Positions 1 to 48,958 of a DNA stretch of 64,000 nucleotides are shown in pieces. A program made the position numbers and the translations under genes. The stretch covers positions 11,470,001 through 11,534,000 of the forward strand of contig NC_073389.1 of assembly GCF_028641065.1 (NCBI RefSeq), read 5' to 3'. The notes beneath the pieces are model-generated. The model was given only the letters and a program-made list of their open reading frames with translations, was not told the DNA's origin and searched no databases. Source of the stretch: Leucoraja erinacea (lineage: Eukaryota). Position 1 is the first letter of the stretch. Each line of letters starts with the position of its first letter.

Positions 1-466
1 ATTCCACCTGGGAAGCGGCAGCTGGCAAGAGGGGAGGGAGCTCTACAGTGACCGAGCGTGGCCTGTTGTTGGTAGCGGCCTGAAGAAAGAGCTGTCCCCA
101 CGGGCTACAATTTGATCCGCAACAACAGCCGGGTCACTGGACCGTGCAGCAGCCGATGAAGAAGCGCTCCCTGCTGCAGCCCAGCAACATAGGCTGCTAG
201 TTTCAAGGTGAAACGACAGAGTGTTGAAGTAACTCATCAGACTGAATCAGTCTGAAGAACCGCCCAGATATCACCTATTCATGTTCTCTAGTGATCTGCC
301 CGAACCGCTGAGTTACTTTAGCACTTTGTGTCCTTTTACGTATTAACCATCATCTGCATTCTTTGTTTCAACTACATACAATAATACCGTACTCAGTTAT
401 AATGAACAATCTGCAAGAATGGACGCCAATCCCTCCCCTATGGTCCGTTATAATGAGGGTTTAATG
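1..466. mobile_element. Tc1/mariner (Tigger/pogo-like) MITE, truncated by the window start, with a nested Penelope-type inverted terminal repeat (~201-375)
   Basis: Terminus ...GGTCCGTTATAATGAGGGTTTAATG|TA; internal GC-rich sequence shared with the copy at 16599-17156. Confidence 0.55.
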
Positions 467-1379
467 TATATTGGTAGTAGGAACTGAAGGTACAAGACAC
501 AATGCAGGCATTAGAGAAATTAAGCTTGGAGTTTTAAAAACGTTTGAGTACATTTTCAGGTTGATCCATTGCCAAACATCATATTGGTGGTCTACAGCTT
601 AAGATGGAAAGATGGAAATAAATAACAACGATGTGGAGAGTCAACAGAATACATATTGCTCAGCGTAGATGCATTATCTATTTAAAAACTGATGAATGCA
701 TGAGTAATGCTAGAGGTGAGAACATGGCACCATAGAAAATAGGGTTATGGATATGTAACATGAAAGAAGAAGGGGGATAATCGCAAAAGGTTAATTGCAT
801 TGTGGCATTGAATGAAGATAGCACGGGCATTTGCCAAAATGACAGAAATGGGTTGAGTTGAGTTTAGTTTATTGTCTATAGTAACAAGCACATTTTGCCT
901 ATTTTGTATTGTGGAGGATTACATAGGATGGATGACACAAAACCAGGCTGTTCAATGAAACAAGTCTCTGCAGATAGATATGGTTCACTTACGCCTTCTA
1001 CCGTGGTACCTTATTTAAGCCAGAACAGTGTTCTCATCATATTTCCTATCCATCCTCCTCGAACATGCAAATCATCAAATGTTCTTTTAACATCGTTCCA
1101 AATTCTCACTTTTGTGTGTAAAGAAATTTCTTCCTATTTCCCTCGGTTTTCTTACAGCTATCTTACATTGATGACCTTAATTTATGCTTTTTCTCAAAAC
1201 TGGAAACATTTTCTCAATATCTATTCTATGAACACCATTCTTGGGTCACCCCTCAGCCTTTTTCCAAGAGAAAAGGGATCCAACATATTCATTTTTACCT
1301 GTGTATTCTCTTGCATTTCCAAAATTATCCTTGTAAATCATCTCTCTCAATTGTGCTTTTCATAATATGACAATCGGGG

Positions 1380-1860
1380 ATAGATACAAAATGCTGGAGT
1401 AACTCAGCGGGACAGGCAGCATCCCTGGAGAGAAGGAATGGGTGACGTTTCGGGTCGAAACCCTTCTTTGGACTGATGTCAGGGGTGGGCGGTACAGAAA
1501 GGTTCTGGGTTAAGACATGGTCGTAGAGTCGGAGGGCAGGAGGAATCACAGAGGGGGAGCAGGGAGAGAAGATGTTGTTGAACTCTCATCGGAGAGAGGA
1601 GGAGAGCTTCAAAGTTCTCATACCCAGAGAATTGTGAATTTGTGGAATTCTCTGCCTCAGAAGGCTGTGGAGGCCGATTCACTGGATACATTCAAAAGAG
1701 AGTTAGATGGAGCTCTTAGGGCTAGCGGAATCAAGGGATGTGGGGAGAAGGCAGGAACGGGGTACTGATTGGGGATGATCATCCACGATCACATTGAATG
1801 ACGGTGCTGGCTCGAAGGGCCGAATGGCATACTCGTGCACCTATTTTCTATGTATCTATG
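1380..1860. mobile_element. Penelope-type terminal repeat followed by a CR1-type LINE 3' end
   Basis: AAAATGCTGGAGTAACTCAGCGGG...GACGTTTCGGGTCG repeat, then RIVNLWNSLPQKAVEA..FKRELD and the CR1 tail GAAGGGCCGAATGGC...TTCTAT. Confidence 0.8.
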
Positions 1861-2430
1861 TATGGTATTATATATATTATACACGTTTACTATATTATAG
1901 TCGCTCTTGCCTTGATGTTCCCTCACTTTTACGAATTTTCGCTGATTAATTGCACATTTCAAGATCAAATAGCAGGGGGGCTTTTTCAATTTTTTACGAT
2001 AGATTTGAAAGGAATTCTGTATGGAACAGCATCTCCTTACCTATTTTATCCTTCACTTCCATTTTATTAATATTGGTTGGTTGAAATCCCTCATGACTTA
2101 TTTTACATTTTACATAAGATAACTGCATAGATGTGGGCAACATTCTTATCATCAGGCTACAGTTAGACTTCTGTACATAATTCACCAAATACGGATTTCA
2201 TGAACATCAACCAGTATGAATTTCATGAACAGCAACAAGTATTATCATAAATAAAGCATACAATATGCTTTGTTTCACATTCATTTCAGAATGTAATATC
2301 TTAATGTAATTTCATACACATGCATCTAGGATCAAGCATTTACAGCTTGGCACAACAGTTAACTTAAAATGTTAAGCCATTTAATAAATCTTAGATAAAA
2401 GTGAAAAAACAATACTGTTTTTAAAAATAC

Positions 2431-2584
2431 CTTTTAACATCCAGTGCTGATGTTTGTACCTGATTTTTCAGCCATGTTGCAGAGCTATGAAAGAAACCAT
2501 ATTTTCTTAAATGTCCTTCTTGCTGATTAATTAGTGAAGTTAATCCCAGCAACCAGGCATTCTTTAGTTTATCCAAAGCAGTAT
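2431..2584 (-). CDS. LTN1: LTN1 exon 14 (DTALDKLKNAWLLGLTSL...WLKNQVQTSALDVK); gene continues beyond the window start
   Basis: Manual translation matches the listerin KLKNxWL...WLKNQVQxSxLD segment; 154 nt; phase joins exon 13 across a 19.8-kb intron. Confidence 0.93.
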
Positions 2585-3049
2585 CTAAAGCAGAAAGAAA
2601 AATCCTAAATTAATACGCTTCAATCATGCAGTCATTCATACTTGTTTTGAGATTTGGGAACCTTTCTACGAAAATGATTGTTTATACAAATGACACGGCA
2701 AATGAATATCTAAGAATGAATTCAACAAAGCATGTTTTTCCATCTCAAATAAACATAAATATTAATATATATAATATATAAATCTATATGATATATAAAT
2801 AAACAAGTAATATATAAATAAGATAAATATAAACCTGTGAGCTTTCGTTTTCTGGAGATCCTACAATTTCAAATTTTTACTGTCTATTTGGTGTAACGAA
2901 ATAATGGACAATCATTTTATTCTATATTATTATAAACTTTGTTTCAGACTTAAGGTCCACACAAGAGACGGCATTACATAAAATATATTGCATATAAAAC
3001 ACCATAAAATACATAAAAAAGCTTAGTAAATTACTTATAAGAGCATCAT

Positions 3050-4610
3050 AAATTATATACAAAAACACAATACATGATTTAAAATCCAGAATAAAAAGAA
3101 AGGTCAGTGTCCTACAACGAGACAACTATACCAATGTCTCCACAACTGGGATTGGTAGCCTGTAGTGCTAAACCTTATGTTTGATAAGATCTTGATAATT
3201 ACATTTTCAGAGTCATTAATCCTGCAGATAAATTTATGCATATGATTTCTTAGGATGGCTTCTAAAGTACTGACTCCTGCAGCCACAAACAATTCATTAG
3301 CACTACACCATGTAGGTTTCCTTAGCAGTGTTCTTATGGCATAATTATAAGCCACCTTTAGTCTCTGTAAGGTACACAAAAATGCTGGAGAAACTCAGCA
3401 GGTGCAGCAGCATCTATGGAGCGAAGGAAATGGGCGACTTTTGGGGCCAAAACCCTTCTTCAGACTGAAACCCTTCTTCAGAATTCCTTTCAAAGGGTTT
3501 CGGCCCGAAACGTCGCCCATTCCCTTCGCTCCATAGATGCTGCTGCACCCGCTGAGTTTCTCCAGCATTTTTGTGTACCTTCGATCTTCCAGCATCTGCA
3601 GTTCCTTCTTGAACACCTTTAGTCTCTGTAAACCTCTCTTCACCTCTGCCTATCCTTAGCCCCACGTCCCCCTCCCTTTTCATCTGTGCATTAATTGCCT
3701 CATATTGTGTTTTGAATTGTATTCTGTCTTTACTTTGTGTACTAGTCATGTCTCTACTATTTATTTCATTCGCCTTACATGTTTTTCCTCTACCTGCTAA
3801 ATTTTTGTAAGGTGTCCTTGAGACTCTTGAAAGGCGCCCATGAATAAAATTTATTATTATTTATTATTAAACTTGTTTTTCCGTAGTTTGATCACATGTG
3901 TGCAGTATAGAGTGGTGTGCAATATGCTCCAAACAGAGACATCTTCACCACATCTGTACACGCACCAAATTAACGCAAGAGAATATTTGCCTGTACATAC
4001 AGTATACACCGTTGCCTATAAATATCCTCATCATCTGTCATTTGTCAGATTTACGCATCCCTCTTTGACTCAATTTAACAAACAACTTTCTATGATTAAC
4101 ACGATAAAAGGCTTTGGAAGCATTAATAAAGCACATAACAATTGATGAGTTTTTACCTCCATATTTGTTTACAATCTCCTTTAGGAGTGTGGAATTAACA
4201 ACTCATTTAATCTATCCAGCAGAATTCTTTCTAGGATTTTTGATAATATGCTGGCTAAAGCTATGGTCCTGTAATTATTTAGGTTGCCTAATTACCAGCT
4301 TTGTCCTTACTGACCGGCACTAGCAGAACAGACAACATTGAGTCTGGTAACAAGCCATGCATCATAAAGCCGGTAAAACAAATACCAAGCAGAGGAGCCA
4401 TCCTCATACTCGCATACTTAAGATGTTCAGCAGAAATGTGATCCAAGCCACTTGCTTTGTTGTTGGACAGCTTGTTCATGGCATGATACACCTCATGTGA
4501 CATAATCACCATTGAGTCATTACTCCCAATATTGTCCACCTTATGCAAATCACAGAATATAGTAGGCACGAATACAGAACATATCATATCAGTGTGCCCA
4601 TACACCATTA
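3050..4610 (-). mobile_element. Degenerate non-LTR retrotransposon ORF2 (RT) fragments, interrupted by other repeats
   Basis: NKASGLDHISAEHLKYA...LVPVSKDK (RT domain 0/1) at 4288-4608 and C-terminal VAYNYAIRTLL...LEAILRN at 3104-3370. Confidence 0.75.
3371..3613. mobile_element. Penelope-type inverted terminal-repeat insertion with an 18-bp target-site duplication
   Basis: Arms 3371-3460 and 3493-3580 are reverse complements; CACCTTTAGTCTCTGTAA at 3353-3370 and 3614-3631. Confidence 0.85.
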
Positions 4611-4689
4611 TATAAATATATACACATCAATAAATATGCAGATAAAATGCTAATAAATAGATCATGGTCTATTAGTGTTCAGAGATTTG

Positions 4690-5690
4690 TTTCAGTTGAG
4701 TTTAATAGCCAGATGGCTGTGGGGAAGCAGCTATTTCTGAACCTGGATGTTGCAGTCTTCAGGCTCCTGTACCTTCTACCTCAAGGTAGTGGGGAGATGA
4801 GTGTGTGGCCAGGGTGGTGTGGGGTCCTTGATGATGCTGCCAGCCTTTTTGAGGCAGCAACTGCGATAGATCCTCCCGATAGTAGGGAGGTCAGAGCCGA
4901 AGATGGACAGGGCAGTGTTTACTACTTTTTGTAGTCTTTTCCGCTCCTGGGCGCTCAAGTTGCCGAACCAAGCCACGATGCAACCGGTCAGCATGCACTC
5001 TACTGTGTACCTGTAGAAGTTAGAGAGAGTCCTCCTTGACATACGGACCGCAGATGTGCTTCAGTAATTGGATCAGTGTTCTCGGACCAGGAGAGATCTT
5101 CAGAAATATGCACACCCAGGAATTTGAAGCTCTTGATGCTCTCTACCATCGACCCGTTGATATAAACGGGACTGTGGGTCCCCATCCTACCCCTTCCAAA
5201 GTCCACAATCAATTCCATGGTTTTGCTGGTGTTGAGAGCCAGGTTATTGTGTTGGCACCATTTGGTCAGTCGGTCGATCTCACTTCTATACTCCGACTCG
5301 TCCCCATCAGTGATACGTCCCACAACAGTGGTGTCGTCAGCGAACGTGATGATGGAGTTCGCACTATGACCGGCTACGCAGTCATGAGTATAGAGCGAGT
5401 ACAGCAGGGGGCTGAGCACGCAGCCTTGAGGTGCTCCCGTGCTGATTGTTATCGAGGCTGACACATTTCCACCAATATGAACAGTCTGTGGTCTTTGAAT
5501 GAGGAAGTCGAGGATCCAATTGCAGAGGGATACGCAGAGACCCAGATCTGAGAGCTTGCTTGGAGGGGATGATTGTATTAAATGTAATCAATGAATAACA
5601 GCCTGAGTTTTTGTTCTCCAAGTGGTCCAGAGTGGAGTGGAGAGCCAGCAAGATCGCATCCACCGTTGATCTGTTGTGTCGGTATGATAG
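4690..5690 (-). mobile_element. Rex1/Babar-clade non-LTR retrotransposon RT fragment
   Basis: [22 protein letters not shown]...FADDTTVVG...[14 protein letters not shown]; frameshifted. Confidence 0.88.
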
Positions 5691-5984
5691 CTGTGGTAAA
5701 ACTGACCAACATCCAGTTATTATGGAAACAAATACCATTATTTCCAAATTCTTGTCCTCGTTAGAAACTATTCTCAGAAGTACAATCACTATTCTTTCGC
5801 TGTTGTGTCAAAATCCTGAAATCCACCCAACTAAAAGCATGATAGGAATAAACTGTACTACATAGGCTTCAGTGCTTTAAGAGACTAGTTCATCACTAGT
5901 CTCTCAAGGGCAATGTAGAGAAGTAATATATCCTTGCTTTGTCACCAACAAGCAGATCATTTATTTCACTGGAACCCAAACTTT

Positions 5985-6562
5985 TTCGGGCCATTTTTTG
6001 GCTCCATAAGCTCACCCCCCTTGCACCTTATCCTACCCGATAAATAGTCTTGTTCAGAATAGCGATTTGCACGACCCAGTAAGGAAGATAATAACACAAT
6101 AAAATTTAAAACAGTAACAATAAATTGCACATTTATTCAAAATCCAATCACAACTTTTAGTTTAAATTAATTTAACAACATTGATGAATTTGATCCAATG
6201 ATACCAGCTTTTCAAAGTCTAAGTTATTTAGCAAGTCTTAGAGGCCACATTTAGTAACTACTTCAGTGTTCAGTAAATTCTGAATGCGATGGATGGGCTT
6301 CATGAAATGATACCAGTTTTGCAAACTTCAAAAAGTTCCAAGAAATACTATCTAGCAAAACAGTCCACGCTCTTAGCGAGGTCAGTGGAACGCACGGCAG
6401 AACAACTGCCCCGTAATCATGTCAAGTGCATATTGCCACCTCTGTTGCCCATTGTCCTGCCCACCTCCAGCACCCCCCTGCCATGTTCGTATCTCTTAGC
6501 ACCCTCTAGGTAATCTCATAGCCCTCTACAGGGTGGAACCTCTCACTTTGGGAACCATTTAT
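5985..6562 (-). mobile_element. Degenerate hAT (Charlie-like) element remnant
   Basis: Eroded termini CACTGGAACCCAAACT / TTTGGGAACCATT and minus-strand LDFEKLVSLDQIHQ resembling a hAT transposase C-terminus. Confidence 0.45.
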
Positions 6563-8139
6563 TTATATGAACGTAAAAGGAAGTTTTAATCCCAATAAAC
6601 CTACTTTTTTTCCCGCCCTTGATAACTTGTATTGATAAGTTTTCCTTTTTATTGCAAATTTAATTTATAAATTCATTCCGGTTGTATTTGTTTACTATGA
6701 GCTTGTTCTACAAGCAGGATAACATTTCCTTACTATGTTACTAACAACTAAGTTTAGTAACAACTTAGTTGTAGCATATTGTTAGTTAGTTAGGGCATGC
6801 TGCAGATGGTGCTAACACAAGTACAAGTTCTAGAACAGTGATCAATGTTCAGCTGCTTCAGACCAAATGTGATGAGTTATGAGTGACAATGCTTAATCTG
6901 GAGAAGTACATATACATGCACTTAATTATTATTTTCTATACTTTTTTTTCCGATAGATCACTTCCCTGTTTTACTGGTTTAAAGCATTTACCAAAGTTTC
7001 CTCTTTCTGGTTGGAGACTAGTTCCATTCCAGTTCAAATGCAGCCCACCCTATGGGTTTCTCTCTATACTGGAAAACCTTTTCTTGTATCGATCCTTCTG
7101 TCATAAGCTTCTCCTGATCCATCTCCTTCAACGCCAACCTCAAGATATCACTTTTCAATTTAGCTTCAATATTTCTATTACCACGTGGACAAAAACACCG
7201 GATTTTCCTCTTTCTTTCAAAATTCCTCTAAAGAAATTCTCTTACTGTGACAATGGATTTGGTTCCGGGCCACAGAAGATGCTATTGATATCCTTAGCAG
7301 CATTACTACTGCATTTCTGTTGCACTATGTCTTGAAGCAGCTGTATCATTCCATCGTCTGCACTTTGGATATCTTCCTGACAATCCCTTTCCATGTCCTG
7401 CCATGTCTGGTGGCGAGGGTTGTGGGTGAAGATGGGATGGAGAGGGGTGAGGTGGGGGATAGGGAGGAGAGAAGAGTGGCAAGAGATTTCCCTCAAAGTG
7501 TTCCCCCACCCTCCTCCCCACAGATTATATGGGATTTGGGCAAGTCCAATATGTATAGTGTTGTAGGAGTCATAATTGTGATTTATACCCTCCAGCATAC
7601 ATCACAAAAAGACGTTGACTGAATTTTATCATTTATATCCCTGAAAACCTCAGAAATAAATTTCAAATCTGAATAAAACTACAGATTATCATAAAAATTC
7701 AAAGAATAATGAAAATATTGCATGCAGAGGGAAAATGTAACAAGTATTTCAGACATATCAATCTCCTACCACATAAATGAATGGAAATATCTTTTTCAAT
7801 TAGTGCTAAATTAATTATGGCCAACTATGGCAAATACAGAACACGTAGACCAGCGATTTCAGTATGATTAAGACAGTATTTATTTTAGTGTCCTATTTGT
7901 TTTGTCTGTTACATTTCAATAACAGCAACAGCAGAGAATATCTCTTTAAAGTTCACTGCCTGTTGCTTTATTGAATAATTCAATGAAATTTTACTTCAAC
8001 AATCTGTCAGTATTAAGATGCAATTTGTCTGCAGCAAAACCTGACAAGGCAACGGCACAGTAGTTTTAATGGGTTGCAGTTCCAAAGAATAACCAAGAGG
8101 CATGGTTTATTGTGCATGACACTAATTCAATAGGCTGTG

Positions 8140-8290
8140 ACTTACGTGGTCTGCATGATTGACTGTACTGCCATTCACATTATAGTGTAATTGCTTGCAG
8201 ACCATTTCAATCAACATTCAAGTTGAGATTTTCTCCCGGTACGCAACCAAAGGAAGTCAGACAAATGTATTTAAATATAATTGACTGTAT
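8140..8290 (+). promoter_or_regulatory. Putative proximal promoter of the apelin-like gene
   Basis: TATA-like TATTTAAATATAA at ~8268-8280, GGAAGT (ETS-like) at ~8252, TACGTG (HRE core) at 8143-8148. Short motifs only. Confidence 0.3.
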
Positions 8291-8339
8291 TTACGTTCTG
8301 TATTAGTAATTGAATATATCCCATGCATTCATCAAAATA

Positions 8340-8403
8340 ATGAATGTTAAGTATATCATTGTTTTTCTAACCATTTTGATAACAATGTCATCAATATGCA
8401 AAG
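8340..8403 (+). CDS. Apelin-like prepropeptide, coding exon 1 (signal peptide MNVKYIIVFLTILITMSSICK-G), nested antisense in LTN1 intron 13
   Basis: ATG at 8340, basic N-terminus then a hydrophobic core, ends in a perfect phase-1 donor AAAG|GTAAGT (GT 8404-8405). The MNVK start resembles teleost preproapelin as recalled. Confidence 0.85.
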
Positions 8404-8820
8404 GTAAGTGCTGCATTTTATTACATTAAATGCAATTATGTTACAGTATGCCAAGTACAAATTGTAATTCAAACAAAGATAAACAGCATTTTAAACTATG
8501 TGCTGAAATCATTTTACTGCGTCACAAAGTAACAGCAGTTTTCAATGCATTGCTTCCGTGGCTAGCTCGCACTGGCAGCAATTGATAACGATAGAAAGTT
8601 AAAGGAATACCTACATCATTTTAACTGTATTTTGTCTTCTTTCAAGATGTAATGTATGTAGTTAGTCTTTGGAAGTTAATGGCAATATATCCAAATTTAT
8701 GAAATAACCTTTAGTTATTGCTACCAATTTGCCAAGTGATTGGGACAAGCTGTGTTCTCATGGTTATAGAAGTCACAGTATGCAATCAAATCTTGATTGA
8801 TTTATGTATTCCTTTGTTAG

Positions 8821-8981
8821 GACTCCAGCAGTTTACTCGTTGGGTACAAATAAAGCCTGGGGAAGATGCTGGTCAATCAGTAAACCGTGTCATTCGATGT
8901 TCAGGATGCAAACAGTCAGCTACAAGGGAAAATAAACGCCCCCGACCTAAACTCTCTCGCAAAGGTCCACTGCCTTTCTAA
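8821..8981 (+). CDS. Apelin-like prepropeptide, coding exon 2 (G-LQQFTRWVQIKPGEDAGQSVNRVIRCSGCKQSATRENKRPRPKLSRKGPLPF*)
   Basis: Acceptor TTCCTTTGTTAG| (AG 8819-8820), phase 1 in frame with exon 1. The C-terminal PRPKLSRKGPLPF matches apelin-13 (Q/P-RPRLSHKGPMPF) after a KR dibasic site. TAA at 8979-8981 is followed by donor CAG|GTAATA (GT 8988-8989). Spliced CDS is 225 nt = 74 aa. Symbol withheld because orthology versus paralogy to APLN is unresolved. Confidence 0.88.
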
Positions 8982-9252
8982 GATCAGGTAATAAAACCTT
9001 GAACAAGTGCCTTCTTTGGTTATTCTTCAGACTACAATACTAAAATGTTGTTGATGAATAGGGATAGAGTATTGAAATAAAAATTGTCAAAAATGAAAAG
9101 GAATTGAGAGCAAAAAAAAAGGGGTTTTCAGAATCAAAACTTTAATGTTACTGTATAAAAGGTGTTTACTGAGGGACAAAGGTGCTAAAAAATTGATGGG
9201 TAGCAATGGAAAATAAAAATATTCTATTTAAGTAAGGGTGTTTATTTCTTAG

Positions 9253-9420
9253 ATCAAGATGGAGCAAGCCGAGGCCAGACTTGGAAGCACTCTCCACAAT
9301 TTGTATTAAAGACACTTCAATGCTAAGATTATATTTAATTCATTTTTTGACAGAACTGAAAATGCTTTAATAAAACTAGTTTGCAGACCAATAAAAATAA
9401 AAGCTAAAAGTGAGATAGAC
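9253..9420 (+). other. Candidate non-coding last exon (3' UTR) of the apelin-like gene
   Basis: Acceptor GTTTATTTCTTAG| at 9251-9252, then AATAAA at 9369, 9390 and 9396. An alternative strong acceptor exists at 11223-11224. Confidence 0.45.
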
Positions 9421-9614
9421 AAAACATTTCCGACTTATTTAATCACGTATCCTCTCCGCACGGATATCAATGCAAAGATAATAAGAAATGAGCAGAATTT
9501 AAGAAAACCCAAAGTTTAACTTAGCCAGCTATAATTATTCTAGAAAAAATGTAACAATGTACATTACCTATTATAACACAGTAAATCCATAGCCAGAGTA
9601 ATATGGGGCAATGT

Positions 9615-10650
9615 GTGTAGGAAAGAACAGCAGATGCTGGTTTAAATCGAAGATAGACACAAAATGCTGGAGTAACTCAGCGGGACAGGCAGCATCTCTG
9701 GAGGGAAGGAATGGATGACGTTTCAGGTCAAGACTCTTCTTCAGATTGATGTCAGGGGAGTTGGGGGCGGTAGAGAGATAAAATGTAGTCGGAGACAGTA
9801 AGACTGGTCAGAGAACTGGGAAGGGGGAGGGGATGAAGAAAGAATGAAAGCAAGGACTACATGAAGTTAGAGATGTCAATGCTCATACCGCTGGGGTGTA
9901 CCCAAGCAAAATATGAGGTGCTGTTCTTCCAATTTGCACTGGGCCTCAATCTGACAATGGGGAGGCCGAGGACAGAAAGGTCAATGTGGGAATGGGAGGG
10001 GAAGTTAAAGTGTTGAACAACCGGGAAATCAGGTAGGTTTAGGCGGTGTGAGCACAGGTGTTCAGCGAAATGATCGGCGAGTCTGCGCTTGGTCTCATCG
10101 ATATATATGAGTCTACACCTGGAACAGCGGATACAGTAGATGAGATTGGAGGAAGTACAAGTGAACCTCTGCCTCACCCGAAAAGACTGTTGGGATCCTT
10201 GGACGGAGTCAAGGGGGGAGGTATAGCGACAAGTGTTGCATCTCCTGCGGTTGCAGGGGATAGTACCTGGGGAGGAGGTGGTTTGGATGTGAAGGGACGA
10301 GTTGACCAGGAAGTTGTGGAGGGAACGGTCTCTGCGGAAAGCGGAAAGGGGGTGGAGATGGGAAGATGTGGCGAGGAGTGGGATCCCGTTGGAGGTGGCG
10401 AAAATGTCAGAGGACTATGTGCTGTGTGCGATGGCTGGTGGGGTGGAAGGTGAGGACTAGGGGGGCTCTGTCCTTGTTACGAATGGAGAGGGGGGGGGGG
10501 GGAAGCAGATTGGAGCTGCGGGAGATCAAGGACCAGCTAGTGAGAGCCTCATCTACAATGGAAGAGGAGAACCTCCATTCCCTAAATGAGGACATCGCCG
10601 ATGACCTGGTATGGAACACCTCATCTTGGGCCCAGATGTGGGGCAATACC
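9615..10650 (-). mobile_element. Penelope-like element 3' part (GIY-YIG endonuclease plus terminal repeat)
   Basis: RQRFTCTSSNLIYCIRCSRCRLIYIDETKRRLADHFAEHL and PLVLTFHPT motifs. Confidence 0.88.
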
Positions 10651-13600
10651 ATATACAAGATAAATATTTATTTAACCTTTAATCTATGCCATCTGAGATG
10701 GATAGGAACAGATAAACCATTTCACAACAGGGAGGATTCAACAAGGCGTTCTCATGAGAGCCTTGTTAGAGTAGTTGAAAACAAGGTCCCCAGAATGCCC
10801 TCTTGACCAAACTGACAATCTTCAATTTACGATAAGAAGATTATGAAATCCAGTATTGCGTAAATACATTTATTTTTTACTACAAATATGATTTATTTGG
10901 TAAAATTATGAAACTTATATAAAGATAAAAATATAACGGCTACTCATTTTCAAATAATAAGGTAAATTATAAGGTTGTGCTTGCAAAACCGTTAGGCAGT
11001 GCACATGCGGGCACACAGTATGACAATAATTTGCCTTTTACCATCAGAACCATAGCAACCTCTCGCAGTCATTCTTACTTAAAAAGGAATTTGGATTAGG
11101 AATACAGGGCCAGAATTGTTCTGGCTGTGCCTGCTGTCCGATTTGCCACAGTAATATAAAAACAAAGCCACTTCTATCAATTCAATATAATTTATCTTCT
11201 GTTGTTTTTTTCCTTTCCCCACAGCACACGACTGCACCCAGTACTTATTTTCTGCAAAGATCATGTCCAGTGCCATCTACGAGCAGAGAAAGCAAGGACA
11301 AACATCCGTTTAGTATCTCCATCAGGAGTACAATCTGTATTTCTGTTAAATGCTGAAGATATTTGTTTCAGTTGTTTAAAATATTGCCACAGAAAGATCC
11401 AAAAATTTCCAGATGTGAATCTGCCACTTCAGAGAATATAATCGAAAGGTCAACAGAAAATATAAAATGTGCTGTGAGACATTCTGTTCACAACAACCAT
11501 AATTTCATTTTCTGATGCATGCTCCAAAGAGATCAATTCTATCTGTAAACAAGAGATCTTGTATCGGCTGTTTCTCGTAACATAGAGTACATTATGAATA
11601 ATTAAAATGGTTAAGAGACTGCTTTAAAAATAGTAATCAACTGACTTTTAAAAATACCAATAATCGTTCAACAAAATTCATCATTAAAAGTTATTGCGTA
11701 AATGAAATATTCCCAATTAGAGGATCTACTTGAATTATTTACGGTTTCTTAAACGCTGGATAATTGCGAGCAGATTAGTATTTCAATATTATCAAAGATT
11801 CAGATCTCATTATATTAGCCATTTATACTTAACATTTTCAAGAATGTGATTTAAAAAGATGCAACTTCTTGTTCAGTCTACACTGTAGCCACTCCCCAAT
11901 GCAACATACAGTAGAATGCACCAAAACGTATCAACCATTTTTAAAATTCTGTCGCACACAATTCATGAATAAATTGATAATGTAAGTAAACGGTAGAAAT
12001 ATAATTGAGAACATTCAGAAATGAATATATTCAAATAGTTAAATTGGTTAAAAATATTTCAAATTTTAGCATAAATATGCAATTTCTCTATTTTAAAAGT
12101 GGGTTTGTTGATTGCTTCTTTTTTCAAGCACTTCTGTAATGCCACAGGTTTAGAACTTAGAATATCATAAATTCACACAATTAATACTGTGCCCTTTGGG
12201 CTAAATAGATCTTAAGATTCCAGAATAATTGGTAGGATGGGGAGTAGTGTGGACTAGTGCAAGTGGGTTCTTGATGGTCAACTTGGACTCATTGAGCTAA
12301 AAGGCCAAACCTCCTTATTATGACATTATATTGAAAATTATTTTTTTCGCTGATCGAAAAAATAATCAGAGGTCAAAATTGTTTTGCAAAATGGGCCACG
12401 GAAAATCAGAACTAGATTTAATTATTTATTTGCTTCTTTTTGTTACTGGAACAACCTGGTTAGATCTAAAAGATTTAGAACATTTTAACTTGGCACCTGA
12501 TCAAACTCTATTTTTTGTAGTTAGTAATAGCCAATCATTGATGGAGTATGCTTTTTATACATTTGCAGTACAGAAATAGCCATCTTGTGTTTTTCCTGAT
12601 GCATCCCTTCCCTGTTTTTTTCAGAATGATAATATTTTCTCACAAGGTAATCTGTCACATCACCCTCTTCAATTGCAAGTTTTTATTTGCTGTCTAGATT
12701 GGACACTCAAGGCTCTATTAATTACATCGAGATCTGAATAAAACTTCCTTCAATACCAAATAAAACAATAACCATCTAGTTGTGACGAAGTTCTGCATCA
12801 AAAAAATGTTTCCTCGACGGAATTGTTAATTTGCGGCTTTGGATGTTTTAAATAGAGAGCTGAGAGTTCAAAGGTACTGAAAATGTAATGATTTGTAAAT
12901 GCGGTAGAGAAGACATGCTCAAAGTTCACTTTGTATTGATTATCTATTTAGCTGTGATAATTCTCTCAACCCACTGCTGTCAAAACGTTATCATTGGATT
13001 TGCTGTTGTTGTATATCACAAAATCTCTATCTTGTTATGGCAGTAAAACAATGCTTTGAAGTCTCCTCTTAAAATCTCTGGATAACTATCCCATTCATAC
13101 TTTTCCAGTTTGTTAATCACAGTCTCCAGAGATTTTCCTCCAATCCCAGTTCAACAAATCTGTGCACATTTTCTGCATGACCGCAGACATAACTTTTTTC
13201 CCTCATCATGACATGTGCATTCTCACCTGTTCTGGCTTTTCCTGCCATAATTTGCAAATAATCTGATATTTAGTACAGATGTAGAGCTTTATATTTCCCT
13301 CTGTCATCACAATAGTTAGGGCCTTTGGTCGAAGCTGTTCTCGTGTAAGTAACTTGTTTCACTCCATCAACTTCTAGCAGATATAGGATTAAGGTATGGG
13401 AAACACTGTAGACTGTGGCAACATGTCTTTATAACATTGCTATAATTAAAGCAACAAATGGCACCCGCTACTATACACATCTTGCGTACTATCCTTATTC
13501 AATCATCTCAAGTTCCACACACTATGGCATTACAAACAACAGCATCCTCTTCCAATACAGTATCTCAACTGCTCATGACTCTTAGTTGCAAATTGAGTCC

Positions 13601-13659
13601 ATTAGAACATTTTTTCTGGAATTCCCTACCTAAACTCATCTCTCCATTTTCCTGGAGAA

Positions 13660-14965
13660 ACAAGGAACTACAGATACTGATTTACAAAAAATGGCACAAT
13701 GTGTTAAAGTACCTCAGTGGGTCAGGCAGCATCTCTGGGAAGCATAGATAGGGTCGGGATCCAACTGTGGACTGATTGTGGTGGAAGGGAAAGAAAGCTG
13801 GACGAAAGGATGGCCAGGACAAAGCCTGACAAGTAATGGGTGGTTACAGGCGAGGGGGGGTTGATCGGCAGATGGCTAGACAGAGGTAAAAAGGCACAAA
13901 CCCTCCGACTTCCACATTTATCTGGACTACACCTCCTCCCGCCAGCCTCTTCAAAGATGTAATTCCCTACTCACTATACTTCAATTTCTGCTGTACCTGC
14001 TTACAAGATGAGGCTTTCCATTCTAGGATCAAGATGTCCTCTATTTGTTTTAGTAATTGTGGTTCCTCACTGCTACCATATGTGTATCCCTCACCCGCTT
14101 CTTGTCCGTGCCCAGTAGTTCTGCTCATGCTCCCCCTCCTCCAGGTGGAACATGGATAGACATCCCATGATCCTCACCTGGCACTTCAATCGTGGCTGCA
14201 TCCAACACACCATTCTCCAACACATCATGTTGGGATCACCTCCAACATGATCCAAACACCAGTCACATCTTCCAATCCCCTTTCCGCCTTCCGCAGAGAC
14301 CAACTCCGCGGCTCACTCATCCCTTCCCACCCAAACCAACCCTTTCCCACATTATTTCTCCAGCAACCGCAAGATATTCAACACCTCGCCCTGTACCTCC
14401 TGATATCCACCCAGCATTTGGTCCACATGAGACAGAGGTTTATATTCATCTACTGCATCTGGTGTTTCTGATGTGGCCTCCACTGCACCTTCGGATGCAT
14501 GTGACAAATAAAATTGACTTTGACTTTGCATCGACAAGACCAAAAAATCGGTGACGTTTCATTCTACACTTGTGTTCGGTCTGCCAAGTTGCTTACCATT
14601 CCAACTCTCCATTCCATTCTGACCTTTCTGTCCTGGGCCTCTTCCATTCCCAGAGTAAGGCCACACGCAAGCAATTTTATATGTCAACCTGCAACACCCC
14701 TCCCCCACCCCGTGCCCACTCATTTCTTCCCTCTATCTATATTCCTTACTCTGGCTTCACAATTATCAACTATTCAATCCATTTGTCTCATACCTTTTGA
14801 CCAACCATCTGCCTGTCAACCTGTCACTTGCCAGGCTTTGCCCTGCACCTCCTCTCTACCAGCTTTCTGCCCCCCACCACAATCAGTCTAAATAAGGGTC
14901 CCGACCCGAAACATCATGGTCTCCAGAGATGCTGTCTGATCCACTGAGTTACTCCAGCACTTTGT
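13660..14965 (+). mobile_element. Degenerate Penelope-like element flanked by inverted terminal repeats
   Basis: Eroded RQRF..IYCIWC GIY-YIG motif at 14430-14480; terminal repeat copies at 13660-13790 and 14880-14965 in opposite orientation. Confidence 0.75.
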
Positions 14966-16246
14966 AAATTTTCTTTCTCCATTTTACCTTTATTCTTTAA
15001 TTTCACCAAACTATTAGTTAACCATTCCAATATCCTTTGTTGACTGTGTTAATTCTTGACTGTCTACATTTTGGTGAAGCTTCATGAGATATTTTCATTA
15101 CAATTACACCAATGTCTGTCCTACTGGTTAGTAATAGCCTTATTCAAGGAATTCTATTAACAATGGTTTTAAATTTCTCCCGAATCACCCTCTCTACAGG
15201 TTGGTAGGTTAATTGGCCACTATAAATTATCTCAATTGTGTAAATGAACGATAGAATCAAGAGTAGTGAATAAAATGGGATTAGTGTAGGACTCGTCTAA
15301 GTAGGTGCTTGATGGTCAGCTTGGTCTTATTGAACCAAAAGGCATGTCTCCGTGCTACATCACTGCATGACTCTCTGACAGTTAATCTCAGCTCTTTCTT
15401 TTCCTAGACTTATGTGTTTCCATTAACAAATTGTAGGAGCAATTTATTTAAAGCTAACCTCAAAAGCTAACTTTTGATTAACGTATAAAAATCTTTCATA
15501 TTAAATCTAATGCAATTTTACATATTAAAGTTATTAAAAAATATTTTTTCTCTGGACACTGGCAGACGCTAAGATCCCCAGCAAAATGTTACAAAATCAC
15601 AATTTTGATATCACACATCAGACCTGTCATGGGATTTTTCTATTTCCTATTCATCCAAAGCAGGTTCTCAGCCAAGAGGTTGGGAAGAAAAAGTAACTAT
15701 GAAATTGTTGCTTATGTAAATTTTCATATTTTAATTAAAACATGCTAATTAAAACAATTAAATATTTTTGACCAATTCAAAGCCAATTTAATCATTTTTA
15801 AGGATCTCTCACTATTGAATAATTTTAACAATATTCCATCTGAGACCCACTATACCTCCTAGATTTAGAAGGGCAGCTCCATCAAACCATTGCATCCAGC
15901 ACAATTAAAAACCACAGCTGGCGATCCGGATTCAAATTAATTCCACCTTAATTTATCTATAAACTCTTTAAAGGGATGTTTATGCCCACACGTGGCTGTG
16001 CCATCTTTTTATCTTGTCTTCCTCATCTGTAATGATATCCCTGCTTGATAAATGGGTATACAAAAAACATTTTTTATATTCAGTTTCTATCTAAAATTGT
16101 GTTTAGTAGTTTTAAGTTTGTAGTTTTCTGTATCTACCTTTTGGGAAGTTATGTAGTGAAGTGCTGGCTGTTTATTCTTCATATTCTGCTAATTCACTAA
16201 AATTGAGGATTATATCAAACTAATCACTTAAATGGTTGAGATGTTT

Positions 16247-16516
16247 AAGAAAGAACAGCAGATGCTGGAAAAACTGAAAGTAGACAAAAATGCTGGAGAA
16301 ACTCAGCAGGTGAGGCAGCATCTATGGAGAAAAGGAGTAGGTGACCTTCAGAATGATGTCGGGGGGGGGGGAAGAAAGGAAGAGGTGGAGACAGTAGGCT
16401 ATGTGGGAGACCTGGGAAGGGGGAGGATCTGAAGAAGGGTCTCAACACAAAATATTGCCTACTTTTCTGCATAGATGCTGCCTCGCCCGCTGAGTTTCTC
16501 CAGGATTTTTTGTCTG
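16247..16516. mobile_element. Penelope-type inverted terminal-repeat insertion with a ~20-bp direct flank
   Basis: CTTAAATGGTTGA(G/A)ATGTTT at 16227-16246 and 16517-16536; inverted arms inside. Confidence 0.8.
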
Positions 16517-16598
16517 CTTAAATGGTTGAAATGTTTTCTGTAACGATGCATCAATGGAATAAAAATCAATGCTTCACTTACAAACTGTATTGAAAATA

Positions 16599-17156
16599 CA
16601 GTATATCTTAGTTATAATGGACCTAAGGGGGAGAGGAGGAGGGAAATGGTTTCTGCCAATTGTCCATTATAACAGAGTATGGTATTATCACTTTGTCTGC
16701 TCCACACATCGAAAGTAGAGTATGCCAGTGACTCCAGGGGAGGAGGAGGGTGGCGGTGGAAGGAGTGGGGGGAGGATGGAAGATGTTGAATGGACCGAAC
16801 GACAGGAGGAGGAGTAGTAGGAGGAGGCGGTTGAGCAGGAAGGGAACAAAGCGACGGGCCAACAGGAAGCAACAGCAGCAGGTGGGAGGGGAGGGAGCTC
16901 CAAGGTGATCGAGCGTGTCTGGTCGGTGGCAGCAGCCTGAAGAAAACGCTCTTCCCAGGGGTTACAACACGAGCCATGTCAACTATGCAATAGGTGAAGA
17001 AGAGCTCGCTGGTGCACCTTGCGAGAGATGGGTGGCGTCAAAAGCCAAGGCTCTAAGCGGCCTGGGAGACGGTTCAAGCTGGCTGTGGCATCGGCAGGTC
17101 CATCTGATATATCCAAAATCCATTATGAAGTGGTCCATTAAAACACGGGTTTACTG
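16599..17156. mobile_element. Tc1/mariner (Tigger/pogo-like) MITE
   Basis: TA|CAGT...ACTG|TA ends with imperfect TIRs (GTTATAATGGACC / GGTCCATTAAAAC). Confidence 0.65.
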
Positions 17157-17379
17157 TATTTACAATATGTACCATTAAAAATAATCCCACGTTGTGGGAA
17201 TTAAATTAGTAAATGGACAAATAAATACTACTACTGAAAAATGGAAAACCCTGAACACCCTTTATTGACAACACCTACATTGATCAAGGCATTTTCAATA
17301 AATATTTAAAAATCTTACTTCAACAAATTCCATTGCTTTGGCGAGTTGGATTACAGAAAGTCCCAAGGCTTTTTATACC

Positions 17380-18700
17380 TACATTAAAACAGGAGGACAA
17401 TGAAGGCGAAGATAGGAGGTCGCTCAAGGATAAAGGAGGAAATTTGTCATTGGAGTCTGGGAATGGAGGCGAGATACTAAACATGTACTTTACATCTGTT
17501 TTCACCAAGGAGAGGGTCATGGAGGACAACGAGATCGGTGTGGAGTATATTAATATGCAAATTCAGTTTGAGATTACAAAGGAGGAGGAAATGTTGCTCT
17601 TGAAGAGCATTAGGTGGATAATTCACCAGGACCTAATGGGATATACCCCAAGTTGTCTTGATGAAGATCTTTGCGTCTTCTCTAGCCACAGGTGAGGTCC
17701 TGGATGACTGGAGAGTAGCTTATGTTATTCCTTTGGGAAGTAGAGAGAATCCAGGGAATTATGGATGGGTGAGTCTCACATCAGTGATAGGGAAGCTTTG
17801 GATGAGGATTCTTCGAGATAGGATTTGGAAGAGAATTAGTTAATTAGGGTCATTTAGTATGGCTTTGTAGAGGCAGGTCGTGCTTTAGGCTGAATATATA
17901 TAAAATATGAAAAAATGACTGACATAAATATAAATGGGTTGTTTAATAAGTTGCAAATGACACCAAGATTTGTTGGGCTCACGGCTTGAGAAGAACGCTG
18001 TCAAATTAAATGATGGGATGTAGATCAACTACAGAAATGGGCGGAGAAATGGCAGATGGAGTTTAATCCAAGCAAGTGTGAGATGTTGCAATCTGGGAGG
18101 TCGAATGTGAGGGGAAATATACAATTAATGGAAAGACCCTTAGCAGCACAGATGCACAGAGGGATCTTGAGCTCCAACTACATGACTCACTGAAAGTAGC
18201 AACACAAGTAGATAGAGTGGCAAAGGTGGATATGGTGTGCTTGCCTTTATAGGTCGGAGCATTATTAAAGTCAGGAACTCATGCTAAAGCTTTATAGGAC
18301 TTTGTTTAGGCCACATTTGGAGTATTATGTACAGTTGTGGTTGTCCCATTACAAGAAGGATGTAGAGGCTTCAGAGGCTGCAGTGGAAGTTTACTTGAAT
18401 GATGCCTGGATTCGGGGTCAGGGTAGAATGCCGGAACTCTTTTCCCAGGATTGAAATATCAAATAGTGGAAGGCATAGCTTTAAGGTGAGAGGTGCAGAG
18501 TTTGAAATGGATGTGCGGGGCAAGTTTAATTTTACACAGAGGTGGTGAGTGCGTGGAACGTGCTGCCAGGAATGGTGGTTGATGCAGATATGAGTGTTGT
18601 ATTTAAGAGACTTTTATATAGGCATATAGAAATGCAGGGAATGGAGGGAATATGGATTATGTGCAGACATACAAGAGTTGTGCTTGGCATCATGTTCATA
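17380..18700 (+). mobile_element. Degenerate CR1-type LINE ORF2
   Basis: ILNMYFTSVFTKE, SLATGEVLDDWRVAYVIPL...PGNY..VSLTSVIGKL, downstream RT and tail remnants. Confidence 0.85.
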
Positions 18701-18869
18701 AAATAAATCTTTAAAATGCAGAGATTCAACATTAGTAACATATGAAGCATGGCCTTCGGTCTGTGAATTTAGCTAGCAAATGACTCACATGGACGGAAGA
18801 CCACTATCCACCTCTTCTTCTTCAGCATTAATCCAGCGTACGTCAATCTCCTTTTGAAACTGAACACCA

Positions 18870-19790
18870 TCACACGTATCTTCACTGTGTCTCTAGTTCT
18901 TGCTCTCGTTCCTCCCCCCCCAGACGCAACAAGGACAGAGTTCCCTGGTCCTCACCTTTCACCCCACCAACCTCTGCATCCAACATCGACATTTCCGTCA
19001 TCTCCTACGTGATCCCACCACTAATCACATCTTCCCATCTCCACCTGTTTCTACTTTCCTCAGAGACTGCTCCCTCTACAACTCCCTGCTTGACTCATTC
19101 CTTCCCACCTAAACCACCCCCACTCCAGGTACTTTCTCCTGCAACCGCAGGAGATGCAACACCTGTCCTTATACCTCCTGCCTCAACTACATCCAGGAAC
19201 CCCGACTGACCTTTCAGGTGAGACAGAGGTTCACATGTACCTCTTCTAACATCATCTACTACATCCGGTGTTTCCAATGTGGGCTTCTGTACATCGACGA
19301 GACCAAATGTAGACTCGGTGACTGTTTCGCTGCACACTTGCCCTTGGTCTGTCGAGGCCTATGGGATCTCCAGGTTGCTAACCATTTCAACTCCCCTTCC
19401 CATATTGATCTTTCTGTTCTGGGTGTCCTCCATTGCTAGAGTGAGGCCTATTAGAGGCCTATTAGAGGAACAACACCTCATATTTCCTTTGGGAAATATG
19501 AGGTCTTACGTTAAATTTTCTAATTTTAAGCAACTTCTGCTAACACCCTCCTCCCCGTTCCGCTTCCTCCACCCTAATCGTTTAACCAGTTCCACAGTTT
19601 GCCATAATGTATCTCTTTTGAGATCACACCTTCCCTTGCCAATGACTGGCCCACCAAAGCTCCACCCTGCTAGAGGTCACCTGCTGCCCACCCTGATTTG
19701 TCCTGGTCATCTCCCCCCTTCCCCCACTTACAGTCTGAGGAACGGTCCCGACCCAAAATGTCACTTATTACTCCAGCACTTTCTGTCTAC
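18870..19790 (+). mobile_element. Penelope-like element 3' part (GIY-YIG plus terminal repeat)
   Basis: RQRFTCTSSNIIYYIRCFQCGLLYIDETKCRLGDCFAAHL. Confidence 0.85.
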
Positions 19791-21464
19791 TATCACATCG
19801 TAGATAGAAGTTCATACATCAGGATTTCCCACTTGCAGTGTGCATTAGCATTTAATTGCTTGAAGATGTAACGCCATTCCAAGACTTGAACTAGTGTGGT
19901 CAGAGAGAGGGAGCTGGAGCCAGGGTGAAGTAGGAGACTACTGTTGTGAAGTTGTAGATGTTAGATTGATATAATGCTAGTATTAACTTGGAAACAAGAG
20001 AAAAACAAATTTTAAATAGTGGATGGGTAAATGGAAGAATTGTGCCACATTGAAATGGACAGGAGAGCCAAGAAAATTGTCAGTTAGCTTTGAAGGATAG
20101 TCAAGAATAGTGCTAATCTATTTCTAAGGCACAAAGGATAAGGATAGCTACCAAAAAATGCAAGCTCAGCCTGCTACATATCACCATGCTGTTATTAGTC
20201 TCTTTAAAGGGCTGTTTTTTGAGGCTTCTCAATTTAGTAGATCACATCACTAATATTCAGCTGCTCATGTTATTAAATTTCAAATTTAAACAGACCTAAT
20301 TTAAGTACAGGACGTGTTAAATGTCAGATGCCAGTACCACCATTGAAAAATCCATCAAGCAGCATTAGCAGGACAAAGGCAGATGGACATGCCAAAACAT
20401 GTATTACCAATTCATATCCACAGCAACCTCGCCCACAGAAAACGGTGGGCATAAATGAGGTACATAGAATAGAACTTCTATATTCCATACCTGGTTATGA
20501 ATAGTCACTTGATCCCTGCTATACCAGACGTAGAAGCTTTACAATTGGTTCAGTCCCTAGACTGAAGCAATGTGGGGAAAAACAGTCATAAACGGAAACT
20601 TCTGCTCATTTGTTAAATTACCCAGATAGCAAGGATTACTTCCAACGTCGAATGATGCTCAGGAAATACACTCACAAATGAAGAAAGAAAATTTGGGTGA
20701 GATAACCTGTGGAATTATGCGTATCAACAGCTCGCTCCTTTTGGAAAACTAGTAAGATAATGGCAAACAATCTTTTTGTGTCATAGGGAAACTGAATATA
20801 GTGATGCTCCAATTTGAATACTGATGATCATAGAGAAAATCTAAGCATACATTTCACAATTGTATGAATGCAACTAAGCAATAAGATACTAATCAAACCT
20901 GATTCAAATAACCATTTTCCAATCCTTGATCACAATGTTTTGCAATGAGTGGTCATTCAACCAAAAATAGTATTAACAACAGTTTCAGGCAATACAAATA
21001 TACAAAGAATCTATGCAATAAATAGCTGGGGGAAAGTATTTTCAAAAAATTTCTAAAATGAAAACGAACAACTTACATATGAAGTTGTCAAATTTGGTGA
21101 ATACAGCTATGGTTTCTTGCAATGCAAGTCATGAACTAATCGCATAATCAAAGATTTGGAAGCTCCTAATACACACATACATTAACATATTATCCAAAAT
21201 AAATGCAAGAAATACTGTAGAAGTTACATCATCTTTTGACTGAACACGGAAAATAAAAAATGATTTCTGAATTGATCTTTTAAAATAAGAGCGAAATTAC
21301 GAGGGCTCTAGTCATCTTTGTACATTAATTTTCTGTGAAACACTTTTTGGTGGGTATGGAGTCTAATTTTACCTATTATGTTTATCTGCTTGGCAAAATT
21401 CCTTCCAATTTAGCATAATGAGGAAGAATGGATAAATGAATGAACGAACTAACTAATTAACTTC

Positions 21465-21935
21465 CGGAAGGCAGGCCTGACTCGCCCGCCGCGGGCTGAT
21501 GCTGGAAGAGGACCGGCCCGCAGCGGACCGACGATGGAGGAGGACCCGGCCTGTGAATCGCCCCCAAGCCACTGGCGCTGACAGGAGCAGAGCAAACTAA
21601 GAGTGAGGAGGGACTGAGAGCCATGTGGGCCAGCCAGAGCGAGGTGAACTGCCAAGAGAAATGGGGGATGGGGGGGGGGGATCCAGTGTGAGGCCACCGA
21701 GACCAATGGGGTGGAACCAGCGTGGGGGGAGGGGGGTGTGAGAGGAATGGCGAGACCCGGCGAGAACGAAGGGGGAACGCCTGCCGTCCCGTGCAGCAGC
21801 AAGCAGTAGATTTGTTCTGTTCAGTACTTTTGTAACTTTATCAACACATGGTGACACGTGTACTACCTAGGTTGTATGCAAAACAAAGCATTTCATTGTA
21901 TCTAGGTACATGTGACAATAATGCATCTTTCAATC
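21465..21935 (+). mobile_element. GC-rich non-autonomous retroposon with a Rex1-like 3' tail
   Basis: Tail TGTATGCAAAACAAAGCATTTCATTGTATCTAGGTACATGTGACAATAA resembles tails at ~30540 and ~61460-61500 (minus). Confidence 0.5.
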
Positions 21936-22357
21936 ATAGAAAAACAGGCTCCTCATCCCATTAAATCCATCCTGTCCATCAGCTACAATTTACACTCATC
22001 CAACGTTAATGCCATTATTTTATTCTCCCCACATTCTCATAAAATTCCCCGCAGAACCTACCACTTAATTGCCTATATTAGGGACAATTCTGAGTGGCCA
22101 AATACCCTACCTGATATTTTTGGAAATATGGGAGGAAACCACAGCACGCTGAGGGATGATGTACATTCTACATACAGCCAGCACTGGAAGTCAGGTTTGA
22201 TCCTGGGTACCTGGCACTGTAAGGCATCAACTCTATAAGATGTAAACTAAATGATAAATTAGATAGGGAGCTTCCCCAGAAAATTACCCTGTGCTGTGCA
22301 ATCTTTTCTTAAAAGGGTAATTGTTTGAAGATCCATAGAACAATGCTTATGCTTTAC

Positions 22358-22603
22358 CTGAGAGATGAGTCTTCTCCTGACTTTGGGCACAGAGCTGGAA
22401 AATTGTGAAAAGAAGATCCTCAGCTGAAGACATCTGCAAACATCCCTTGATGGAACAGAAAAAGTTGGATGCCAAATCACAAATGAAAGAGAGCGAAGGC
22501 TCCATAACTCCAGTTTTAGTTAGGTCCTCAGATAGATCCTTCGAAAGTGCACGGTGGAGTCGGTCAATTATTCTTTCTATATACATTTCAGCAATCATGA
22601 ATT
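22358..22603 (-). CDS. LTN1: LTN1 exon 13 ([17 protein letters not shown]...QEKTHLS)
   Basis: ORF 22347-22613; 246 nt; phase 1 at both ends. Confidence 0.94.
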
Positions 22604-23139
22604 CTATAAACAAAACAGTAAATGAAATGATTACAATATATTACCAAGACATACATCCTCCAAATATAAATGTTTGATGTTGGCTATTACACATTAATCA
22701 GCAAATAAAATATTCAAGATAATCATAAAGTGTTTGGTTCTCTTGAACCACGTAATAAACCATGAGTAAACAGGCTGACTGAGTTTGCTGTTCTACGGTG
22801 CATGAGCAGCATTTCATGATCTGCTTTGAAGACTTCTGTTCCATTAATCTAAGTAAACAGGATAGTCATCTGGTCAACAGATCGTGAGCTCACTTATTGG
22901 TCGTATTTTGTATTTGCATTAGAATGCACAAAAATAAGTTTTTGAATACATCATGAAGATTTTTTTTAAGTCAATCATGTTTACAAGGGGTGATTGAAGT
23001 CTTATTTCTAACATGTACAGCAGATCAACCTTCTGTTCCTTTGCTTGTACATTACCATCTTTTATCATCTTGCATCATCCGTTTTAAATAATTTAACTTT
23101 TTTTGTAATCTATCTATAATAGTTTCCTTCCTCTCACAT

Positions 23140-37550: not shown

Positions 37551-37769
37551 ACAATGGAGCAAGAAAATTTACATCTTAACATGGATTAAAACACAAGAAG
37601 GATTGAATAATGCAACTGCTAATGGCGAGGTTCTTTTTTAAATGCACAGAAAAAACATTACATAGAGTATAGAATGTACCGCCATGACAGAAACCATATC
37701 AAACTATCAATAACAGAATATTTGTTTCATTCCTAAAACGAAGCTGTAAGAAGTTTTGTTTAAACTTAC

Positions 37770-48631: not shown

Positions 48632-48958
<327 letters not shown>

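Follow-up and report, generated by a model that had tools for sequence, protein, structure and literature searches.

Genomic context of an apelin-like gene

The window analysed here, a 64,000-nucleotide stretch of contig C13 of the Leucoraja erinacea genome (G000), carries exons of the listerin gene LTN1 and of RWDD2B on its minus strand and a small gene of apelin type on its plus strand (Table 1). Because listerin exons flank this gene on the minus strand, the apelin-like gene is nested antisense within a single LTN1 intron on C13; the presence of listerin exons on both sides rules out a tail-to-tail arrangement with LTN1, the exon for listerin residues 1690-1747 lying left of the window. Neighbouring genes were named from sequence searches of the PDB, Pfam having recognised one of the seven neighbour exons.

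The GC-rich start of a further gene, presumably USP16 given human gene order, was observed from about 57500 (+). Past the 3' end of LTN1, the next clear gene is a BTB-kelch gene at G000:C13:11379846-11387293 (+), which we take to be KLHL15-like, and a search beyond that end did not find an N6AMT1-type gene. A broken intronless WD40 copy at G000:C13:11391648-11392624 (+), presumably SNRNP40-like, runs into a short env-like fragment and has the appearance of a degraded processed copy next to the remnant of a retroelement.

Table 1. Positions within the window of the apelin-like gene, its host gene and its neighbour
Feature	Position	Strand	Basis or remark
LTN1 exon, listerin residues 866-915	2424-2609	-	
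LTN1 (listerin) host intron, 19.8 kb	2585..22357	-	between exons for listerin residues 785-863 and 866-915
Coding exon 1, 21 codons + one base, signal-peptide-like	8340..8403	+	best-ranked ATG-to-donor candidate in 1-8800
Intron 1, 417 nt, GT..AG, phase 1	8404..8820	+	no contig depth in bin 8510-8760
Exon 2: pro-region, apelin-like C-terminus, stop, 6 nt 3' UTR	8821..8987	+	Pfam Apelin, contig matches
Arg-Val-Ile-Arg (minimal R-x-x-R), then Cys-x-x-Cys pair	8886..8909	+	translation
Lys-Arg dibasic site directly before 13-mer	8934..8939	+	translation; P1' Pro, P4 Glu
Apelin-13-like peptide PRPKLSRKGPLPF + stop	8940..8981	+	9/13 residues as in C12 apelin, 7/9 through different codons
Intron 2	8988..11224	+	repeat inside at about 9600-10700, presumably of SINE/LINE-like class
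Inferred non-coding exon 3 (3' UTR)	11225..12071	+	acceptor at 11224, AATAAA at 11968; 3' end approximate
LTN1 exon, listerin residues 785-863	22350-22640	-	
LTN1 exon, listerin residues 114-194	37710-38057	-	
RWDD2B (C21orf6) exons	48635-55000	-	

Gene structure and transcription

Exons 1 and 2 together encode a precursor of 74 residues. Exon 1 has a short basic start, beginning with the MNVK that also opens the apelin gene on contig C12, followed by a hydrophobic core with hydropathy up to 3.4 and a phase-1 donor, GTAAGT; judged by this hydropathy, the precursor is likely secreted. An unspliced 73-residue frame from the ATG at 8760 was rejected as the real start, given the better signal region, consensus donor and contig depth of exon 1. 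Exon 2 is bordered by an acceptor at 8820 and a donor, CAG/GTAATA, at 8988.

Contigs from four sequencing runs were compared with window positions 6000-13500. Exon-2 contigs were present in three of the four runs, from two other organisms and two studies, and the unique intron bins had no depth. These contigs match 8819-8984 (X1, one other letter), 8820-8987 (X2, two other letters) and 8819-8987 (X3, two other letters), each with unlike sequence beyond both ends. The depths of X1 account for 166 nt of exon 2, for 24 nt in the bin of exon 1 and, from 11222 on (bins 11020-11521), for 49+32 nt; its unmatched flanks of 24 and 81 bases equal the exon 1 figure and the 49+32 nt. For X2, the exon 1 bin holds 42 nt against 43 unmatched flanking bases. 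These flank lengths fit exon 1 and the strong acceptor at 11224, which no other AG site between 8990 and 13500 surpasses though it ties for the top rank; they indicate a transcript of three exons whose last is non-coding, and further contig pieces extend to 12071. The chicken and human APLN genes are likewise described, in the available text of PMC6315173, as having three exons, the last non-coding. The exon-only runs were guessed to be RNA, although one carries the label 'probably DNA' and none of the runs listed is registered as RNA, which counts neither for nor against; the joints listed did not include the junctions. Contig depth was low, at 4.5-5.6, and a single raw polyA run, sampled at 6% of its reads, gave no reads on the exons. 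The exon-only contigs in two other organisms make it likely that the gene is transcribed and spliced.

Low contig depth was also seen upstream, in bins 6000-6250, 7004-7254 and 7506-7756 (all three in X2, two in X3), with no repeat match for these bins among 0.6 Mb of sequence; they could represent 5' non-coding exons of the apelin-like gene or LTN1 intronic RNA.

The apelin-13-like peptide

Translation of the frame places PRPKLSRKGPLPF at 8940-8978 (+), followed by a TAA stop at 8979-8981. The preliminary description of this locus had proposed a divergent apelin-13, and the frame, the stop, the family profile and the 13-mer scores all confirm one; the start it gave, 8935, falls one base into the Lys-Arg pair and not at the peptide. 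The Pfam Apelin profile (PF15360) matches residues 26-53 of exon 2 at 28.5 bits (cut-off 27, E 2.1e-6), a marginal score next to the 54.9 bits of the C12 gene, and the BLOSUM score of the 13-mer against its C12 counterpart is 52, compared with 26 for the next best 13-mer in the window. As the profile match lies above the cut-off and the best 13-mers in shuffled windows (n=30) score 22-33, the likeness is not attributable to chance. A structure database search returned no solved structures matching exon 2.

The 13-mer retains R2, L5, K8, G9, P10, P12 and F13, and position 4 is still basic; an intact RPRL is absent, being replaced by RPKL with its charge preserved, and the C-terminal K-G-P-x-P-F stands directly before the stop. 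Its net charge is +4, versus +3 for the C12 13-mer. The 13-mer core is identical across the apelins of C12, Narcine and Callorhinchus, and the three substitutions previously noted, R4K, H7R and M11L, hold against the genome's own C12 apelin as well as against the two named ones. The internal RK pair attributed to H7R is also present, with Gly-Pro coming next; Arg-Lys before Gly-Pro would be a poor convertase site. Pro1, which had been singled out as precluding pyroglutamate, is indeed there but is not distinctive, as Pro at this position is the rule in chickens and other non-mammals (as described in the available text of PMC6315173) and C12 has Leu. With Leu in the C12 apelin (G000:C12:20532523-20544044) and Phe in Narcine, position 1 of cartilaginous-fish apelin is variable and gives no pyroglutamate form.

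Canonical apelin and elabela in the same genome

A search of the genome with the Apelin profile gave four matches among 21 scored candidates, led by C12:20532523-20532681 at 54.9 bits, with the window gene at 26.7 bits; two further PF15360 matches (18.9 and 18.6 bits) were discarded, having no hormone exon and lacking the motif. The C12 apelin ends in LRPRLSHKGPMPF, its core intact, and is 79% identical to Narcine apelin and 69% identical to Callorhinchus apelin. Its exon 1 runs from MNVK to a phase-1 GTAAGT, and the two apelin genes have in common the MNVK start, the phase-1 intron and a donor just past the stop. Beyond the C12 gene lie genes of the Peptidase_M24_C (20.73 Mb), PF12485 (20.80 Mb) and PUFD (21.25 Mb) types, presumably in the human order APLN-XPNPEP2-SASH3-BCORL1. 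The place beside XPNPEP2/SASH3 is thus taken by the C12 gene, while the window gene lies elsewhere, in LTN1. Elabela is located on C1 with its sequence intact; the Toddler profile search gave seven matches, of which two weak ones proved on inspection to have no hormone exon, and the window gene, whose C-terminus is of apelin type, was not among them. Taken together, the matches assign the genome to the cartilaginous fishes, on the side of the rays.

The window gene is therefore separate from the canonical apelin and elabela genes. Pfam does file it under Apelin, as would be expected of the lineage's normal single apelin or elabela, a reading that the preliminary description had, for the single apelin, itself named as fatal to its proposal; with both canonical genes intact in the same genome, and the APLN neighbourhood belonging to the C12 gene, that reading is refuted. 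The gene is real and apparently an undescribed second apelin-family paralogue.

Compared with apelin (Narcine bancroftii XP_069749324.1 and the C12 gene), the window gene resembles it in its precursor of about 75 residues, MNVK start, phase-1 intron, donor just behind the stop, non-coding third exon, dibasic site before the 13-mer and K-G-P-x-P-F end. It differs in having RPKL for RPRL, H7R and M11L, in having Glu-Asn where apelin-17 starts with a basic stretch, in a Cys-x-x-Cys in exon 2, where C12, Narcine and Callorhinchus have no Cys, in sharing 22 identities overall, and in being nested in LTN1 on a different chromosome and not beside an XPNPEP-type gene. Elabela/Toddler (APELA, PF22050), the second known apelin-receptor ligand gene, is likewise a small secreted basic peptide with two Cys, but the genome's own copy is on C1 and the window gene is not a Toddler match and has an apelin C-terminus. 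A further parallel is the cartilaginous-fish CXCL17 reported in 10.64898/2026.03.04.709523, an unannotated secreted basic ligand with an Xaa-Pro-Yaa end that homology searches missed; in the accessible part of that source it has eight Cys and four exons, unlike the window gene with two Cys in exon 2 and three exons.

Orthologue and literature searches

Protein searches for orthologues returned the window's own frame and none outside close relatives; a search of longer proteins yielded no orthologue, another gave the query itself and two unrelated matches at E about 1e-3, and the unspliced 73-residue frame forms a single-member protein cluster. Such searches are weak for short divergent peptides, the canonical exon itself having found only two named apelins. 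A feature search returned zf-MYND look-alikes (0.77-0.79), which were rejected as an effect of the Cys pair, and the same search with Narcine apelin recovered two apelin clusters.

The apelin receptor is credited with two ligand families, apelin and elabela, in the available text of a 2026 IUPHAR review (PMC13197934), and zebrafish with a single apln in that of PMC8015242. A published second apelin gene was not found in the open literature; gene pages at NCBI in their current form, subscription journals and supplements on bioRxiv could name one. The accessible parts of PMC5126056 and PMC6504862 contain nothing on a second ligand gene, and the portion available of the supplement to an ohnologue database paper (PMC13450315) lists neither APLN nor LTN1. 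That annotation misses the gene would be explained by its small size and its antisense location within an intron.

Age, selection and origin of the gene

Over their 74-75 residues the window and C12 precursors agree at 22, including nine of the final 13; different codons encode seven of these nine core residues, and a blastn comparison with 7-letter words found no real DNA likeness between the two genes. Drift at synonymous sites beneath a conserved core argues for an old duplication kept by selection, and the codon differences point to old purifying selection on the peptide. Together with the canonical apelin lying elsewhere, this agrees with the earlier suggestion of a paralogue under its own selection. 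The alternative, that the gene is a transcribed copy without a physiological role, decaying into a pseudogene under relaxed selection, is very unlikely: its pro-region is highly diverged, the contig depth is low and the raw RNA run is without reads, but the frame, the signal region and all four splice sites are intact, the conserved core residues are mostly encoded by different codons, and two other organisms show one or two differences over 166-169 exon bases in a comparison covering the exons.

Paralogy between the two chromosomes was also apparent from their other genes. The remaining PF12485 (53.4 Mb) and PUFD (24.3 Mb) family members lie on C13, and in a FastTree receptor tree of 33 rows (35 sequences hand-picked from 129 matches, two of them dropped for want of a usable frame) all three C13 receptors are sister to C12 receptors, with support of 100, 91 and 87. 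A P2X search was of no help in placing receptors, and one for SSRP1 gave no match. From the family and receptor pairs, C12 and C13 look like paralogous chromosomes, a likeness drawn from gene content and trees that favours whole-genome duplication, and the window gene likely derives from an early vertebrate whole-genome duplication.

The same observations can be set against a lineage-specific origin, in which APLN would have been transposed at the DNA level into the LTN1 intron within the cartilaginous fishes, with its function unchanged. The nested intron position fits later transposition equally well, there is no local synteny between the C12 and window loci and no convincing LTN1 remnant in the 200 kb around the C12 apelin, and protein searches, insensitive as they are to short divergent peptides, gave no matches outside close relatives. 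This origin is possible but clearly the less probable one, as the gene lies on C13, the only chromosome for which paralogy with C12 was shown, and its 22 identities over 74-75 residues and lack of DNA likeness compare with 69-79% identity between the C12 apelin and those of ray and chimaera. The divergence of the two genes consequently appears to predate that of rays and chimaeras, barring rapid evolution of the window copy.

Processing of the precursor

Furin makes apelin-13 by cutting after K-F-R-R, with the consensus R-X-K/R-R, according to the available text of PMC3821026. The window 13-mer is preceded by E-N-K-R, with Pro at P1', and neither this site nor that of the C12 gene shows the R-X-K/R-R consensus. 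As Lys-Arg precedes Pro and the furin consensus is lacking, the 13-mer, which the preliminary description predicted as the mature peptide, is uncertain as the mature form. Cleavage at the minimal R-x-x-R, which lies 31 residues from the end, would release a 27-mer starting with the Cys-x-x-Cys pair. The mature form may accordingly be the 13-mer released after Lys-Arg, the 27-mer released after R-x-x-R, or the uncut pro-form. According to the available text of PMC6315173, apelin-36 surpasses apelin-13 about 40-fold in potency at chicken APLNR1.

Receptor and expected activity

The apelin receptor gene of this genome, reached by using an AT1-type receptor as the search seed, is a single intact intronless gene at G000:C25:26332737-26333828. 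Among solved proteins the apelin receptor is its best relative (E 1e-106), and it has an acidic N-terminus, with eight acidic residues and one basic. A search with this receptor did not find a second APLNR: of 1001 candidates 112 were scored, and three of these matched at E<=1e-45, namely the C25 receptor itself, an AT1-type receptor (39%) and a GPR15/25-type receptor (40%). An incomplete assembly could hide a second APLNR, the two possibilities being real loss and an assembly gap. Angiotensin receptors apart, the closest relative that the apelin receptor has in this genome is an intact GPR15/GPR25-type receptor at G000:C24:16147025-16147909. The available text of PMC6315173 gives gar, coelacanth, chicken and turtle two apelin receptors each, with two to three APLNR paralogues among vertebrates other than this species, and notes that apelin and elabela elicit hardly any response from chicken APLNR2 and turtle APLNR1.

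Alanine scans summarised in the available text of PMC6731456 found that Arg2, Arg4, Leu5 and Lys8 matter, largely via charge, and that Arg-to-Ala in the RPRL motif, where R4K falls, is harmful, a point against agonism of the window peptide. Analogues with norleucine in place of Met11 bind at 20 pM, and there are active cyclic agonists in which His7 is substituted. With charge at positions 2, 4 and 8 and Leu5 kept, and with changes otherwise at the tolerant Met11 and His7, an ordinary APLNR agonist is the simplest expectation for the peptide by analogy with these scans. In a complex prediction, the last 36 residues with the C25 receptor gave weak support, at 0.50 against 0.02 for the best control, the runs agreeing in at least 64% of contacts with partner pLDDT of at least 53; in a calibration on pairs other than peptides, 51 of 78 solved pairs and 2 of 108 mismatched ones reached the mark for such predictions, and values of 0.60 or under comprised 5 of the 78 solved pairs and all four mismatches that passed. 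The model shows likeness only, and, as apelin-receptor complexes have been solved, its pass may reflect those known structures.

The preliminary description had envisaged a distinct ligand-receptor pair, perhaps with tuning to a different APLNR paralogue or biased signalling. With one apelin receptor found in the search described above, neither the pair nor the tuning is supported, and the changes, which keep charge or sit at tolerant positions, lend the pair no support either. A pharmacology of its own, through an APLNR paralogue missing from the assembly, a GPR25/GPR15-type receptor, or biased or partial agonism, would fit the three changes in an otherwise identical core, the Cys pair unique to the window precursor, the APLNR paralogues elsewhere (including the unresponsive chicken and turtle receptors of PMC6315173), and the weak activation of fish GPR25 by apelin (reported in the available text of 10.1101/2025.06.10.658772), given a GPR15/25-type gene on C24. 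It is nevertheless unlikely, since one APLNR was detected in G000, the substitutions are conservative or at tolerant positions, and cartilaginous-fish GPR25, as described in the available text of 10.64898/2026.03.04.709523, already has as its cognate ligand CXCL17, which with its eight Cys and four exons is unlike the window gene.

Discussion

From the directly observed open frame, splice signals, apelin-type layout, profile membership, separate canonical gene, LTN1 nesting and C12/C13 paralogue pairs, it appears probable that this locus holds a second intact apelin-family gene that arose by genome duplication, is transcribed and spliced, and encodes a secreted 74-residue precursor serving as a third apelin-receptor ligand. 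An early vertebrate genome duplication would have produced this second apelin gene, which was retained beside the canonical one; transcription and splicing of the antisense gene in the LTN1 intron would yield the secreted precursor, and a basic C-terminal peptide of that precursor is predicted to activate the species' apelin receptor as its third ligand. With three ligand genes and one detected receptor in the genome, a distinct role would come mainly from the gene's own expression and processing and not from a receptor of its own.

A bolder reading would extend this third ligand gene, unannotated and with a disulfide-looped 27-mer as its product, to the same LTN1 intron across non-mammalian jawed vertebrates, make it the missing ligand of chicken APLNR2 and turtle APLNR1, and ascribe to its RPKL/Arg7/Leu11 core a different receptor preference or bias. 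It is unlikely.

A second apelin gene of this kind would revise the ancestral ligand set of jawed vertebrates. Its peptide would be a natural variant of a drug-relevant one, with changes inside RPRL and no oxidisable Met11. The LTN1 intron after listerin residue about 864 provides an address at which the gene can be sought in any vertebrate genome, and this address makes the question of the unresponsive bird and turtle APLNR paralogues directly testable.
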